Assembly: GCA_016861085.1 (NCBI GenBank)
Contig: BOKR01000001.1
Span: 67,271-131,270, forward strand
From: Patescibacteria group bacterium
GTDB lineage: Bacteria > Patescibacteriota > Microgenomatia > UBA1400 > PJMF01
Direction of reading: 5' to 3'
DNA: 64,000 bases
Shown: piece by piece, positions 788-54,412 of the stretch
Layout of the letters: every line of letters begins with the position of its first letter
Position numbering within the stretch: position 1 is the first letter of the stretch
The notes under the pieces: generated by a model
Told to the model about the DNA's origin: nothing
Databases searched by the model: none
The model's input: the letters and a program-made list of their open reading frames with translations, nothing else
Translations under genes and position numbers: made by a program

Positions 788-867
788 TCTATCTTTTTAG
801 AGAAAGTATTGAAGCCCTCAAGAAATTGAGGGCTTTTTATTTATTCTAATTTTAGTAAAATGCTCCT

Positions 868-9093: not shown

Positions 9094-9306
9094 ATGTCAA
9101 GTTTTGCATTCAAACATAAATCAACTGCGCATGTCGGACACAATGTGTCTCATGCCAAAAATAAAACTAAAAGAAAGTTTAGATATAACTTACACACTGT
9201 TACAGTTGTTGTAGATGGTATCAAACAAAAAATGAGAGTTCCAAGCAGGGTTTTAAAAACCCTCAAACAATCAGGTTTAACCACACACTGGAGAAAACCA
9301 GAGTAG
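9094..9306 (+). CDS. rpmB: 50S ribosomal protein L28
   Basis: GHNVSHAKNKTKRKFRYNLH matches the L28 core (SHA-N-TKR-F-NL). The TATAAT sits about 8 nt upstream of the ATG with no SD. Confidence 0.75.
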   Translation: MSSFAFKHKSTAHVGHNVSHAKNKTKRKFRYNLHTVTVVVDGIKQKMRVPSRVLKTLKQSGLTTHWRKPE

Positions 9307-9327: not shown

Positions 9328-9360
9328 AATAACGCAACTTGATTGCGTTATTTTTTTATC
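9328..9360. terminator. bidirectional intrinsic terminator between convergent rpmB and the acyltransferase gene
   Basis: AATAACGCAA-cttga-TTGCGTTATT hairpin followed by TTTTTTT; the complement is also T-rich. Confidence 0.65.
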
Positions 9361-30102: not shown

Positions 30103-30720
30103 ATGGATATCCGTATGAAATTGCCTCGAGCAGTCCAAAATTTAATAGAAAAATTTGAAAAATTACCTGGTGTTGGACCAAAGTCGGCGCAGCGTTTAGT
30201 ATTTTACTTGCTTCACAATCCGGACCATGAGTTAGAAGATTTTGCACAGAAAATTACTGCGCTTAAGAAAAATACTGTTTTGTGTGAACACTGCCACAAC
30301 GTGAGTGAATCTAATCCCTGCAGTATCTGTGGCGACCCAAGCAGAGAAGTTGAAGTTTTATGTGTAGTTGAACAGCCTTTAGACGTGATTGCTTTAGAAC
30401 GATCAAATTCTTTCAAAGGGAAATACCATGTGTTGCATGGGAGTATTGCACCATTAAACAACATTGGGCCAGATCAGTTATTTTTACATGATATAGCGGA
30501 TCGTTTAGAGGGGGTGACTGAACTCATTATTGCTACAAATCCAACTATGGAAGGTGAAGCCACAGCTTTGTACATCAGTGAGTATCTGGCGACTAGAGGT
30601 GCTGGTGCCAACAAAGTGACTATAACCAGAATCGGTCATGGGTTACCTATTGGGGCTGATATTGAATATGCTGATGGGGTGACGCTGGCTCGTGCTCTTG
30701 AAGGAAGACGGAAGTTATAA
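30103..30720 (+). CDS. recR: recombination protein RecR
   Basis: KLPGVGPKSAQRL HhH, a C4 zinc finger CEHCHN...CSIC, and a Toprim domain. Confidence 0.85.
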   Translation: MDIRMKLPRAVQNLIEKFEKLPGVGPKSAQRLVFYLLHNPDHELEDFAQKITALKKNTVLCEHCHNVSESNPCSICGDPSREVEVLCVVEQPLDVIALERSNSFKGKYHVLHGSIAPLNNIGPDQLFLHDIADRLEGVTELIIATNPTMEGEATALYISEYLATRGAGANKVTITRIGHGLPIGADIEYADGVTLARALEGRRKL

Positions 30721-30730
30721 GTAAGAACAT

Positions 30731-30759
30731 TTGCGGTCAGCGCAAAATTGTGCTACACT
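30731..30759 (+). promoter_or_regulatory. sigma-70-like promoter (TTGCGG-N17-TACACT with TGn), its -35 embedded in the palindrome TTGCGgtcagCGCAA
   Basis: Hexamers and spacing read from the sequence. Predicted TSS is near 30766. Confidence 0.45.
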
Positions 30760-30768
30760 GAGTAACAG

Positions 30769-30836
30769 ATGACACAGTTTCATCCAATATTGAACGCCAC
30801 AGAGCTCTTTTAGAAGAGTCGTGGTGTTTTTTTTAT
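30769..30836 (+). promoter_or_regulatory. leaderless 14-codon uORF (MTQFHPILNATELF) whose 3' end and stop lie inside an intrinsic terminator hairpin plus U-tract; putative attenuator upstream of hpf
   Basis: ATG at 30769 sits about 3 nt from the predicted TSS. Hairpin CCACaGAGCTCTT-ttag-AAGAGtcGTGG then TGTTTTTTTTATT. A second imperfect hairpin (30833-30880) overlaps the U-tract. Confidence 0.35.
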
Positions 30837-30942
30837 TTCGAAGCCGACCTTTTTCGTAAGAAAAAGTCGTAGCTTCGAAATACGGAAAGCGCTTTTGGGA
30901 CTTGGTCATTCATTCGAGTACAAACTTGAAGAAAGGATCCGT

Positions 30943-31272
30943 ATGACTGTAATAGTTGAGTCAAAGAAAATGAAGTTAACTCAAGCTATTAGGATCTTTG
31001 CCGAAAATCAGGCGGAGAAACTCAAAAAATTGGAGAAAGGGGTTTCACAGGTTCGTATTTACCTTGAAAGTGTTGCTCATAAGAAGTCTGACACGTACTC
31101 AAATATTGTGACGTATTGTGTTTCAATTCCAGGAAAAAACTTAGTTGTAAAAAAACATGCAGTTGATATGTATACTGCGATTGTTGATGCGACTGAAGGA
31201 GCCGTAAGAAAGCTACGAAAAGCCAACGAAAAACGCATGACTATGAAACGAAAGGCTTATAGTCCTACTTGA
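30943..31272 (+). CDS. hpf: ribosome hibernation promoting factor / ribosome-associated inhibitor A (short form)
   Basis: MTVIVESKKMKLTQAIRIFAENQAEKLKKL ... DMYTAIVDATEGAVRKLRK matches the YfiA/HPF fold pattern. Strong RBS GAAAGGA. Confidence 0.6.
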   Translation: MTVIVESKKMKLTQAIRIFAENQAEKLKKLEKGVSQVRIYLESVAHKKSDTYSNIVTYCVSIPGKNLVVKKHAVDMYTAIVDATEGAVRKLRKANEKRMTMKRKAYSPT

Positions 31273-31308: not shown

Positions 31309-31803
31309 ATGGACGATACAAATCAGATAAGTGATCAAGTTAGTGCACAAGATGACGCTGTGCAACAGGCTCAACCAACTAGCCAGCAAGTCGCATCAGC
31401 ACCTACGCCAACATCAGCCGCGGCAAATCCAAGTGGCGGTGGGACACAAAAAAACCCTCTCGATGTTCTCGAGCAGCTTTTAAGTGAAATAGATGGTGGT
31501 AAGACGGGTAATGCAACTCCTGCAAAACCGAGTGGTCCAACACCAGAAGAAATTGCGGCTCAAAAAGCTGCCGAAGAACTGGAACAAAGACGAATCGAGT
31601 ATGAACAAAAGCAAGCCCAACAGCAGGTTATTGATCAAGAAAAAATTGATCAACAGCGTCAAGCACTCGTCGAAGAGATGAGTAATGGTACGGCAAACGT
31701 TGCTCGAGCTCAACAAGACGAACAGAAAAAAATTGAGCAGGAGGAGAAGCAACAAGCAGAAGAAGGTTTCGAGATTGTTCAGTTAGATCATACAAAAATT
31801 TGA
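31309..31803 (+). CDS. low-complexity Gln/Glu/Ala-rich hypothetical protein
   Basis: Composition read from the translation. Predicted disordered or coiled-coil. Confidence 0.4.
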   Translation: MDDTNQISDQVSAQDDAVQQAQPTSQQVASAPTPTSAAANPSGGGTQKNPLDVLEQLLSEIDGGKTGNATPAKPSGPTPEEIAAQKAAEELEQRRIEYEQKQAQQQVIDQEKIDQQRQALVEEMSNGTANVARAQQDEQKKIEQEEKQQAEEGFEIVQLDHTKI

Positions 31804-31815
31804 TAAAAGGATAGT

Positions 31816-32505
31816 ATGCCTGGCCCAGGTGGAGCTCCGGGTATGGGGGGAATGAGTCCTCCTGGCGGAGAAATTTCAGAACAACTTGCAAAAATGATGG
31901 GGAGCAGCGCGAAAAGCGGCCCTAGTTCTGGTGGCGGCTCACCAGGATCGGGGCAAATGGGTGCAGCTCAGGTGGCGCAAGCCCAACAAATGTTGGGCCA
32001 GAGTGGCGCAATTCCTGGAGCGCTCGAAGGAAGTGCTGCTGGTAAAACTCCGGGTACTGCTGGTCAAACTGCGACACCGCCAACTCCTCCTCGAGAAGTT
32101 GGAACTATTCAAGAGGAAGTCAAGCGTGGCTTCTCTGATATCTTCACTGGCATAAAGGAATTTTTCAATATAAATACTTGGTTGGGAATTAATCCAAATA
32201 CGCTTGACCCACAACAACAGGCACAGGCTAAACAACTACATTCAAGATATCAACAACTAGATCAGGAACAACAAGCTGTTGCACGTCAAATGTTCGAAGA
32301 AAAAATGCAAAGGAAACGAAAACAAGAAGAAGAAGAGCAACGCAAAAAGCAAATGGAGGCTGAAAAACAGGCTCAATCTTTTGAAATGCCAAGTAGTCCT
32401 CAAAAAGGTGCAGTTGGCCCTGGTGGTGGGAAGAGCAAAAAACAAAATGTGTTGACGAAATTAAAGCAAGACCGAACTACACTTAATAATACCCAAGGCG
32501 AATAA
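31816..32505 (+). CDS. low-complexity Gly/Pro/Gln-rich hypothetical protein with Q/E/K-rich coiled-coil C-terminus
   Basis: MPGPGGAPGMGGMSPPGG ... followed by a charged coiled-coil region. Confidence 0.4.
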   Translation: MPGPGGAPGMGGMSPPGGEISEQLAKMMGSSAKSGPSSGGGSPGSGQMGAAQVAQAQQMLGQSGAIPGALEGSAAGKTPGTAGQTATPPTPPREVGTIQEEVKRGFSDIFTGIKEFFNINTWLGINPNTLDPQQQAQAKQLHSRYQQLDQEQQAVARQMFEEKMQRKRKQEEEEQRKKQMEAEKQAQSFEMPSSPQKGAVGPGGGKSKKQNVLTKLKQDRTTLNNTQGE

Positions 32506-52983: not shown

Positions 52984-54228
52984 TTAGATTTGTTTTATTT
53001 TTTTGACGACTTCTTCTAAAGTAAGTAGCTCTTGTTCTCCTGAAGCCATATTTTTGAGTTGAACTTTATTTTCAGAAACTTCAGCATCACCAATTACGAC
53101 AACATACGGAATATTTTTCTGATTAGCTAGTTTGAATTGTTTACCGATTTGATCAACTTCTGGATAGACTTCAGTCCTAATGTTATTTGCTCGTAAAGTT
53201 TTAGCAGCGTTAAGTGAATTTTTTATCAGGTTCTCATCAAAAACGGTGACTAACACCTGGCTGGAAACGGTGGCTGTTTGCGGGACTAAGCCCAATTCAA
53301 CAACTGCCTCGACAGTACGGTCAAAGCCTATTGCAAATCCGTTTGCTTTAATATCTCGTCCACACAATTCTCCAATCAATCTATCATATCTACCACCACC
53401 ACCAACCGAACCGCCTGAATATTCAGGAACTTTCCCTTCAAAAATAATGCCAGTGTAATAATCTAAACCGCGTGCAAGGGTAGGAGTAAAGACTAGGGCG
53501 TCTTGATCTACCCCGAGCTCAACAGCTCGTTCAACAGTTTCTTTTAAACTTGCAGACATTGTGGCAGAAGTAATCTCACGCAGTACGTCACGGGCATCTT
53601 TTTCATATAGACCTTTGCCAATTAACTCGTCAACAACTTGTTTTTCACTGAGTTTATCGAGCTTGTCGATTGATTGGATAATTGAGAAAACATTCACTTC
53701 ATCATTTGCGAAAGGAGAGATAGTATTCATCAAAGTGGTGCGATCATTTATGAATAGTTTGATAGATTTCAAACCTAAATTCTGATACACAAAATAGTAC
53801 ACTGCTAATAGTTCAGCATCGACAACAGTGCTATCACTTTCAAAGATGTCACAATCACATTGGGTAAACTCTCTAAATCTACCTTTTTGTGGTTTGTCTG
53901 CTCGAAATACATTTTGGATTTGATATCTTCTGAAAAATTTTGGTAATTCATTTTGGTACTGGGATAAAACACGACTGGTTGGCACAGTTTGGTCATATCG
54001 CAACGCAATTTTTCTGCCTCCTTGGTCCTCAAAAGAGTAGATTAATTTATCTGCTTCATCACCATATTTTCCCATGAGTAAACTGGCATATTCCAGGGTT
54101 GGTGTTTCGATAGGTTCAAAACCGAATATTTCGAATGTTTCTTTAATTTTTTTGGTTACATAGTTTCTGATGTTCTTTTCTTTTGGCAAGAAATCTCTGA
54201 AACCTTTTAATGTTTGTACTTGTTGCAT
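52984..54228 (-). CDS. hisS: histidine--tRNA ligase
   Basis: TLKGFRDFLP N-terminus. Class II motifs (GGRYD, FGFDR-like). Confidence 0.85.
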   Translation of the reverse strand: MQQVQTLKGFRDFLPKEKNIRNYVTKKIKETFEIFGFEPIETPTLEYASLLMGKYGDEADKLIYSFEDQGGRKIALRYDQTVPTSRVLSQYQNELPKFFRRYQIQNVFRADKPQKGRFREFTQCDCDIFESDSTVVDAELLAVYYFVYQNLGLKSIKLFINDRTTLMNTISPFANDEVNVFSIIQSIDKLDKLSEKQVVDELIGKGLYEKDARDVLREITSATMSASLKETVERAVELGVDQDALVFTPTLARGLDYYTGIIFEGKVPEYSGGSVGGGGRYDRLIGELCGRDIKANGFAIGFDRTVEAVVELGLVPQTATVSSQVLVTVFDENLIKNSLNAAKTLRANNIRTEVYPEVDQIGKQFKLANQKNIPYVVVIGDAEVSENKVQLKNMASGEQELLTLEEVVKKIKQI

Positions 54229-54275
54229 ATTTTTCCTTCTTAATTTTGATTAATTATACATTGTTGTTTTCTGAA

Positions 54276-54305
54276 ATTAAAAACTCCCTTGTTGGGAGTT
54301 TGATA
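54276..54305. terminator. hairpin AAACTCCC-ttgtt-GGGAGTTT, likely the terminator for the upstream minus-strand M24 peptidase gene
   Basis: Perfect 8-bp stem with T-rich flank on the minus strand. Confidence 0.45.
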
Positions 54306-54412
54306 CGTTTTAAAAAAACCACTAAAATCAACTCCCTTGCATATGAGAGTGATGATGAGTGATTAATTTTGTTTTTGTATCTTTCATCTAACAGATGATT
54401 GTATCATATAAC

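Follow-up and report, generated by a model that had tools for sequence, protein, structure and literature searches.

The DNA analysed here, referred to as the window, is a stretch of 64,000 nucleotides (nt) of contig BOKR01000001.1 (forward strand, positions 67,271 to 131,270) from a Patescibacteria group bacterium, and the element in question is the leader of its hpf gene, the conserved arrangement of which points to a ribosome-dependent transcription attenuator. The hpf gene (30943–31272, plus strand) encodes a short hibernation factor of the hpf/raiA type (109 residues; PF02482, E = 2e-11) that is identical to the NCBI protein BroJett025_00860 from a Patescibacteria group bacterium, and it is preceded by a Shine–Dalgarno sequence, GAAAGGA, at 30931–30937. 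Upstream lies recR (30103–30720, plus strand), recognized in a Pfam search by the RecR_HhH, RecR_ZnF, Toprim_4 and RecR_C domains and with relatives in metagenome-assembled genomes of Pacebacteria, Woesebacteria and Microgenomates type. The two genes are separated by an intergenic region of 222 nt (30721–30942).

This region contains an extended −10 element, TGcTACACT (30751–30759; TGc at 30751–30753, TACACT at 30754–30759), which is taken as the hpf leader promoter; neither strand has another TGnTAnnnT between 30048 and 32136. Spacing from the −10 predicts a transcription start at A30767, G30768 or A30769, the last of these being the A of an ATG, which would leave an untranslated leader of 0–2 nt. 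The ATG lies nine nt past the −10, has no Shine–Dalgarno sequence before it, and opens a leaderless upstream open reading frame (uORF) of 14 codons and a TAG stop (MTQFHPILNATELF, 30769–30813; ATG at 30769–30771, TAG at 30811–30813). Starting 26 nt past the uORF AUG is a hairpin (30792–30829) with a CGCCAC/GTGGTG core, a GCTCTT/AAGAGT inner stem and a TTAG loop that holds the stop codon, and with its T8 tract (30827–30834) it conforms to the definition of an intrinsic (Rho-independent) terminator (30792–30834), i.e. a G+C-rich stem-loop followed by a U-tract. Its folding energy is −17.5 kcal/mol (z-score −5.3), and none of 200 shuffled sequences folds as well. Next comes a second hairpin of 47 nt (ATTTCGAAGCCGACCTTTTTC / GAAAAAGTCGTAGCTTCGAAAT, 30835–30881; −23.2 kcal/mol, z −6.5). 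An earlier reading of the letters alone, hereafter the original prediction, had listed the promoter, ATG, uORF, terminator, second hairpin and ribosome-binding site; all are present in the sequence, at positions that differ from those first given by 1–3 nt at most.

On the sequence of the window alone the two hairpins are above chance. The promoter hexamers by themselves are not: TGnTAnnnT occurs at 209 sites in the window against ∼177 expected, and the combination of promoter and ATG becomes significant only because it is conserved in relatives. A −35-like hexamer, TTGCGG (30731–30736), stands 17 nt from the −10 inside the palindrome TTGCGgtcagCGCAA (30731–30745); it matches the consensus at three of six positions, and TTGCGG and TACACT together at 7 of 12, which is below the threshold of the promoter scan. 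A comparison by eye showed no sign of hexamer or palindrome in close relatives, and the hexamer is probably dispensable for a promoter of the extended −10 class.

Conservation of the leader module and its frame

Loci carrying hpf were collected from 80 RecR-anchored genome loci, from 14 metagenome loci obtained by a scan with an 8-sequence HPF alignment as the query, and from 10 contigs encoding close HPF homologues. Removal of near-duplicates left 45 hpf upstream regions from Microgenomates-type Patescibacteria, with HPF proteins 36–90% identical to that of the window. The same module, consisting of a −10 element, an ATG, an open frame and a hairpin with T-run, is found in 37 of these 45 non-redundant loci, and in all 37 the order is promoter, ATG, terminator, hpf. 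The −10 takes the form TAnnnT, with TG at −15/−14 in 33 of the 37; its distance to the ATG is 8–9 nt in 30, AG directly precedes the ATG in 25, and the hairpin base is reached 23–34 nt after the ATG in 33. When the 70 nt that precede each hairpin are shuffled, a TG-extended −10 with ATG and open frame is expected in 0.26 loci, compared with the 33 of 37 observed. The terminator itself covaries among 11 close relatives, in which 93% of the stem cells are paired and 14 cells carry double changes, a result that none of 500 shuffles matches. The eight loci that fail the automated test for the module comprise six that lack it (L014, L022, L026, L028, L043 and L084), one truncated contig (L083) and one variant (L008) in which, by eye, the uORF stops at the base of the hairpin.

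The strongest indication that the 5′ ATG is used as a start codon comes from the reading frame that it sets. Between the ATG and the hairpin base, this frame has no stop in 306 codons at any of the 37 loci, whereas in the same leaders the +1 frame has 52 stops in 294 codons (34 loci) and the +2 frame 27 stops in 282 codons (19 loci). For the first set of 26 loci, none of 5000 shuffles was free of stop-bearing loci. The original prediction had named conservation of the uORF alongside the hairpin as one point on which it could fail, and with the frame open in 37 loci the outcome favours the uORF. The encoded peptides (9–53 codons) are similar among close kin only, where the N-terminus reads M-T/I/M-Q-F/L-H-Q, and are unrelated between groups; across the 37 leaders they contain no amino-acid run or enrichment of the sort expected of regulatory codons. 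An open frame of variable length that encodes unrelated peptides without amino-acid runs argues that selection acts on translation as far as the terminator rather than on the peptide made. Anatomy and conservation are those of a translated frame, from which we infer that the uORF is translated.

Where the stop codon lies, by comparison, is not a selected feature. The ATG frame reaches the hairpin in 37 of 37 leaders, but its stop falls within the hairpin in 20 and lies 9–91 nt beyond the stem in the other 17, so that the ending of the uORF inside the terminator is not maintained. A stop selected to lie in the hairpin loop was rejected on the same comparison, as the first stop of the other two frames is within the hairpin in 14 and 18 of the 37 leaders. 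Such stops are frequent in all frames because the A+T-rich loops contain stop triplets.

By its distribution the module belongs to hpf and not to recR. Where hpf is 0.8–1.1 kb from recR (L008, L031 and L033), the module immediately precedes hpf, with no counterpart after recR, and where a gene has been inserted between the two (L097 and L101) the module is still found just upstream of hpf. In the locus of the closest RecR relative (L001), hpf is not found nearby, and inspection by eye showed no evident hairpin with T-run in the 260 nt past the recR stop. The distance from the terminator stem to the hpf ATG is 25 nt in L058 and 31 nt in L005, which is too short for a promoter and makes read-through obligatory for hpf expression at these loci; in the window, no further TGnTAnnnT is found between the terminator and hpf. 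Two of the loci without the module bear on its parts. In L014 (intergenic region of 48 nt) and L028 (87 nt) the terminator has been lost, and the leaderless ATG, 12 nt and 57 nt, respectively, before the hpf ATG, shares its reading frame. These variants indicate that the promoter serves hpf and suggest that translation can begin at the 5′ ATG; the hpf mRNA may here be leaderless, its product gaining a short N-terminal extension.

Further structures of the leader and its genomic setting

Two helices involve the start codon of the uORF. The first is a weak 5′ mini-hairpin (30768–30784, plus strand) formed by GAUGA (30768–30772) and UCAUC (30780–30784); in 29 of 33 leaders an equivalent hairpin pairs either the U or the G of the AUG, as against 53% of shuffles (mean z −1.34), with partner sequences that differ between lineages. 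Since one leader (L102) reads the conserved UCAUC in another frame, the conservation is at the level of RNA. This hairpin probably keeps initiation sub-saturating or else serves as a pause or synchronizing hairpin, the role of candidate pause hairpin being assigned only by analogy. The second helix is long-range and appears in the minimum free energy (MFE) structure of the transcript from the predicted start to hpf. It pairs the 5′ end (GATGACacAGT, 30768–30778) with a complementary post-terminator block, ACTTGGTCATT (ACUUGGUCAUU; 30900–30910, plus strand), that is positionally conserved in 11 of 11 close-clade leaders. Its variable pair is CG in four of these, UG in four, and AU, GC and UA in one each, so that all are paired, and none of 500 shuffles reaches the score. 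Beyond the close clade, inspection by eye of the L002, L006 and L011 groups revealed no complementary block. As the polymerase reaches this block only once termination has been decided, the block cannot influence that outcome; in the full-length hpf mRNA the modelled helix would sequester the uORF start together with the 5′ end.

The second hairpin is a lineage-specific insertion. It had been put forward as an alternative structure overlapping the U-tract; in fact its repeat arms begin at T30834 and touch the tract just at the edge, and the MFE structures contain it beside the terminator. Of the ten close relatives compared only L100 shares it; the other nine, L081, L082 and L095–L099 among them, have no such hairpin, and no further copy occurs in the window. 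Because it co-folds with the terminator, is missing in most close relatives and is not repeated in the window, it was rejected as an antiterminator. The L100 hairpin shows some compensatory changes relative to that of the window and has its 5′ arm, ATTTCGGACCCG, present twice, and the structure may be a small inserted palindromic element. Pairing of a 5′ AUGGUU with AACC of the terminator 5′ arm, noted by eye in the L002 and L011 groups, was dropped as too weak and inconsistent, and a search for mutually exclusive terminator and antiterminator pairings found no conserved alternative pairing.

Closer to hpf, the block GTACAAACTTGAAGAAAGGA (30918–30937, plus strand) includes the hpf Shine–Dalgarno sequence and is kept in close relatives. 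Its first part, GTACAAAC in the window (30918–30925), belongs to a GTAYAAA(C/T) block located ∼20–30 nt before the hpf ATG that is conserved beyond the close clade, in L002, L003, L084–L086, L101 and L102, with the form GTATAAA(C/T) in the L002/L003/L084 group. L084 retains it in spite of having no uORF–terminator module. A weak proximal −10 and a binding site are both possible roles for the block. When GTAYAAAC and TTGGTC are taken together as a proximal promoter, the spacing between the blocks, by our own count, ranges from 7 to 29 nt, and the hexamer is without its final T.

Convincing terminators are scarce in the window, which makes the one before hpf conspicuous. By our reading of the scan, about three sites in the 64 kb combine a strong hairpin with a T-run (814–833, plus strand; 30795–30826, plus strand; 58855–58811, minus strand); a further terminator 3′ of rpmB, at ∼9331–9355, was missed by the scan. 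In Rfam searches, the whole window gave no match other than tRNAs at gathering thresholds, and a permissive scan of 30600–31100 (E up to 10) returned chance-level matches only, with the raiA motif not matched. A search of the plasmid collection with the hpf locus gave no match.

Starts of the leaderless type are found elsewhere in the window. At rpmB, rpmE, topA, a P-type ATPase gene and a DHFR-like gene, the start codon is 8–9 nt past a −10 of the TGnTAnnnT type (at rpmB the TG abuts TATAAT). These five are among the starts located 6–10 nt past a −10 element, which are at 9094 (rpmB), 48918 (minus strand, rpmE), 19982 (topA), 36972 (P-type ATPase), 26187 (DHFR-like), 3340 and 6446 (minus strand). 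The five leave no room for a Shine–Dalgarno sequence, and in four of them the Pfam profile aligns from residues 1–11, which supports the ATGs of these four, all but that of rpmB, as true starts. Leaderless mRNAs thus appear to be routine in this patescibacterial genome, including those for ribosomal proteins L28 and L31.

A related leader precedes hisS (52984–54228, minus strand; leader 54229–54406, minus strand). In it, TGaTACAAT (54406–54398) is followed after 10 nt by an ATG at 54387 that opens a leaderless frame, MKDTKTKLITHHHSHMQGS, containing THHHSH. The segments ACUCUC, GGGAGUU, AACUCCC and GGGAGUUUUUAAUUU allow 1:2, 2:3 and 3:4 pairings, and two hairpins are each followed by a U-run. 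On its sequence, this is a textbook four-segment histidine attenuator with a putative leaderless leader peptide.

With respect to hpf itself, some database entries for HPF homologues (P0003, P0005, P0011 and P0014) have 127–156 residues, as gene callers carried the N-terminus into the leader; the equivalent extension in the window would start at a TTG at 30895 and give 125 residues. The longer entries are over-extensions, since the MTVIVESK start is conserved and has its own Shine–Dalgarno sequence. Downstream of hpf, two adjacent ORFs (31309–31803 and 31816–32505, plus strand) code for proteins of low complexity in which Q, E, K, P and G abound; for these Pfam gave no real match and only a sub-threshold hit to Med19. 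Similar unannotated ORFs are found 3′ of hpf in relatives.

Proposed ribosome-dependent attenuation and competing explanations

With moderate confidence, we interpret the hpf leader as a minimal one-hairpin, ribosome-dependent transcription attenuator. From its layout we infer the transcription start, the translation of the uORF, anti-termination and the physiological signal as follows. The extended −10 TGcTACACT would start the RNA at the AUG or 1–2 nt before it, giving a leaderless mRNA with a 14-codon frame. If no ribosome is present when the polymerase reaches the T8 tract, the hairpin would form, a transcript of ∼65 nt would be released and hpf would not be made. A ribosome that had already loaded at the 5′ AUG and moved through about five or more codons would cover the 5′ arm of the hairpin, and the polymerase would continue into hpf, which is then translated from its own Shine–Dalgarno sequence. 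On transcripts derived from recR the AUG would be internal and without a Shine–Dalgarno sequence, and these should terminate, so that the hairpin would also end recR. Since the leader has neither regulatory codons nor a conserved antiterminator, what is sensed would be how fast leaderless initiation and early elongation proceed compared with transcription, a measure of the supply of initiation-competent ribosomes. The original prediction of a translation-sensing attenuator survives in its core, a leaderless uORF entering a terminator, which is supported by conservation, the stop-free frame, the synteny with hpf and the loci with no room for another promoter, and loses the in-hairpin stop and the second hairpin as working parts.

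The physical basis of such a device has been quantified in Escherichia coli, where, in vivo, termination falls from ∼90% to <10% when a ribosome occupies a stop codon located 5 nt before the hairpin, and a spacing of >27 nt restores it (PMC4824070). Several observations nonetheless weigh against our interpretation. In the same study a terminator 30 nt past the start codon was not repressed, and ribosomes rarely catch the polymerase within the first 100 nt (PMC4824070). As E. coli terminators in this interval are mostly unrepressed, read-through into hpf would need fast initiation or a pause; with termination as the default state and read-through set by the speed of initiation, the element would become a sensor of initiation-competent ribosomes. 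The AUG is partly paired in both the 5′ hairpin and the long-range helix, either of which would hinder leaderless initiation, and the predicted transcription start is derived solely from the −10 spacing. The module is not indispensable, as the eight of 45 loci that fail the test illustrate, and the statistics ignore kinship, the loci representing roughly 16 independent lineages by eye. The 116 nt between terminator and hpf in the window, with the conserved GTACAAAC, leave room for what could be a weak proximal promoter. Finally, the sign of the regulation, with more translation giving more hibernation factor, fits only a speculative reading in which idle 70S ribosomes are sensed and feedback follows.

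HPF/RaiA binds the mRNA/tRNA channel of the 30S subunit. An idle-ribosome gauge, our favoured physiological logic for the attenuator but one that we rate as less likely than not, would build on this property: vacant 70S ribosomes, the form that initiates at a 5′-terminal AUG, would load the 5′ AUG, block the terminator and raise hpf expression, and HPF would in turn block the same 70S ribosomes, giving negative feedback. With HPF in the mRNA channel of the 70S ribosome, initiation would stop and termination would be restored, so that the system would act as a self-titrating homeostat that adjusts the supply of hibernation factor to the number of unemployed ribosomes and needs just a promoter, an AUG and a single hairpin, in bacteria whose regulatory repertoires are minimal, and the 5′ hairpin and long-range helix over the AUG would limit sensing to a brief co-transcriptional window. 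A 70S pathway of leaderless initiation has been described (Moll et al. 2004, as cited in PMC4007540).

The architecture would be identical if the leader were a real attenuator set by something other than ribosome supply, such as nucleoside triphosphate (NTP)-sensitive pausing as in pyrBI, a protein or RNA acting in trans on the 5′ hairpin or terminator, or no signal at all, in which case a fixed partial terminator would scale down a strong promoter and the uORF would give constant read-through. The passage of the frame through the T-tract in 17 of the 37 leaders resembles pyrBI, the 5′ hairpin and the conserved post-terminator blocks could be binding sites, and the signal is not identifiable from sequence. 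We nevertheless consider such a mechanism unlikely. Across lineages no motif is conserved save the promoter, AUG and terminator, so that a sequence-specific partner is improbable; no conserved U-rich pause run was noticed by eye before the terminator; and a purely constitutive brake would have no need of an open frame.

Promoter, 5′ stem-loop and terminator also make up the typical anatomy of a small RNA (sRNA) gene, and attenuator-derived sRNAs are known, as exemplified by rnTrpL (PMC6614838). An sRNA of ∼65 nt acting in trans, or a dual-function attenuator-derived sRNA with incidental hpf expression, is in our view improbable, given that a non-coding RNA explains neither the single stop-free frame (no stop in 306 codons, the other two frames having 52 and 27) nor the ATG fixed 8–9 nt past the −10. 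Moreover, the sequence between 5′ hairpin and terminator is not conserved, no Rfam family matches, and the hpf genes of L005 and L058 would have no other possible promoter.

That the hairpin is a plain recR terminator, with an unrelated hpf promoter upstream of it and a coincidental ATG frame, accords with its position 72 nt past the recR stop on the same strand and with promoter hexamers that are not above chance when taken alone, but is very hard to reconcile with a module that goes with hpf when recR is elsewhere, is absent after recR in L001, L031 and L033, and preserves its promoter-before-terminator order, spacing and open frame in 37 loci. A functional micro-protein encoded by the uORF, with the hairpin merely as its terminator, can be all but dismissed: the frame is conserved open and its N-terminus is similar among close relatives, but the frames span 9–53 codons, their products have no relation between groups, many frames run through the T-tract into arbitrary sequence, and the TCATC read in another frame by L102 places the conservation in the RNA.

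Relation to known systems

Patescibacteria, the Candidate Phyla Radiation (CPR), are uncultured organisms with small genomes; plausibly, they are growth-limited for much of their life and have few transcription factors. As far as we found, the control of hpf in these bacteria is undescribed, and the leader would be the first candidate for a cis-regulatory mechanism of hibernation there. A literature search found no leader-peptide attenuation described for hpf or raiA, and a search on leaderless mRNAs in Patescibacteria returned nothing on the topic as judged by titles and abstracts. As an attenuator, the leader would be unusually minimal, with a 5′-terminal AUG racing the polymerase to a hairpin 26 nt away, and would report general translational capacity and not the supply of one amino acid. 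If the feedback between 70S ribosomes and HPF holds, leaderless initiation would be mechanistically tied to hibernation. Considered together, the hisS and hpf leaders indicate that CPR genomes probably use attenuation by leaderless leader peptides as a working regulatory idiom. The hpf element is short (∼180 nt) and directly testable.

A close mechanistic counterpart is E. coli pyrBI (and pyrE), where a leader frame likewise extends into or through an intrinsic terminator and a close ribosome blocks the hairpin with no need of an antiterminator. In all 37 leaders the frame overlaps or passes the terminator, as it does in pyrBI-type attenuation. pyrBI has a 44-codon leader led by a Shine–Dalgarno sequence, coupling set by UTP-sensitive pause sites, and pyrimidine genes as targets, whereas the hpf leader is leaderless, has 9–53 codons and a terminator ∼26 nt from the 5′ end, and targets a hibernation factor. 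With the classical trp and his attenuators it shares a promoter-proximal short frame and a terminator before the regulated gene, and the hisS leader of the window has the same promoter format and leaderless AUG. As in attenuators generally, a terminator stands between the start of the leader frame and the regulated gene, which depends on read-through. The classical systems, however, have runs of regulatory codons and mutually exclusive 1:2, 2:3 and 3:4 pairings, both of which the hpf leader lacks. The raiA motif is a structured RNA of large size (∼200 nt) upstream of raiA; the hpf leader is similar in placing a structured RNA before a hibernation-factor gene and differs in having no Rfam match.

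Regulatory short frames that start at a 5′ AUG, as leaderless leader peptides or short open reading frames (sORFs), are known from Deinococcus deserti, Corynebacterium glutamicum and mycobacteria (PMC4007540; bioRxiv 10.1101/834739; PMC3890552). These leaderless leader peptides sense a specific amino acid through its cognate codons, and none has a connection with hpf or Patescibacteria; in mycobacteria the Cys sORFs work through access to the ribosome-binding site and not through a terminator. The synthetic tR2 series (Li et al. 2015, PMC4824070) provides the quantitative basis for terminator repression, but with engineered long genes led by Shine–Dalgarno sequences. The nearest precedent specific to hpf is the hairpin in the 5′-UTR (untranslated region) of Pseudomonas aeruginosa hpf, which affects expression (Akiyama 2018, cited in PMC13159725), the citing passage mentioning no uORF or terminator. 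Occlusion of a terminator by a ribosome is known already from pyrBI, and leaderless leader peptides are known from Deinococcus, Corynebacterium and mycobacteria. What is new in the hpf leader is the way in which its features come together: the uORF is leaderless and codon-neutral, the single terminator is only ∼26 nt from the 5′ end, helices would sequester the AUG, and the target is a hibernation factor, in Patescibacteria.

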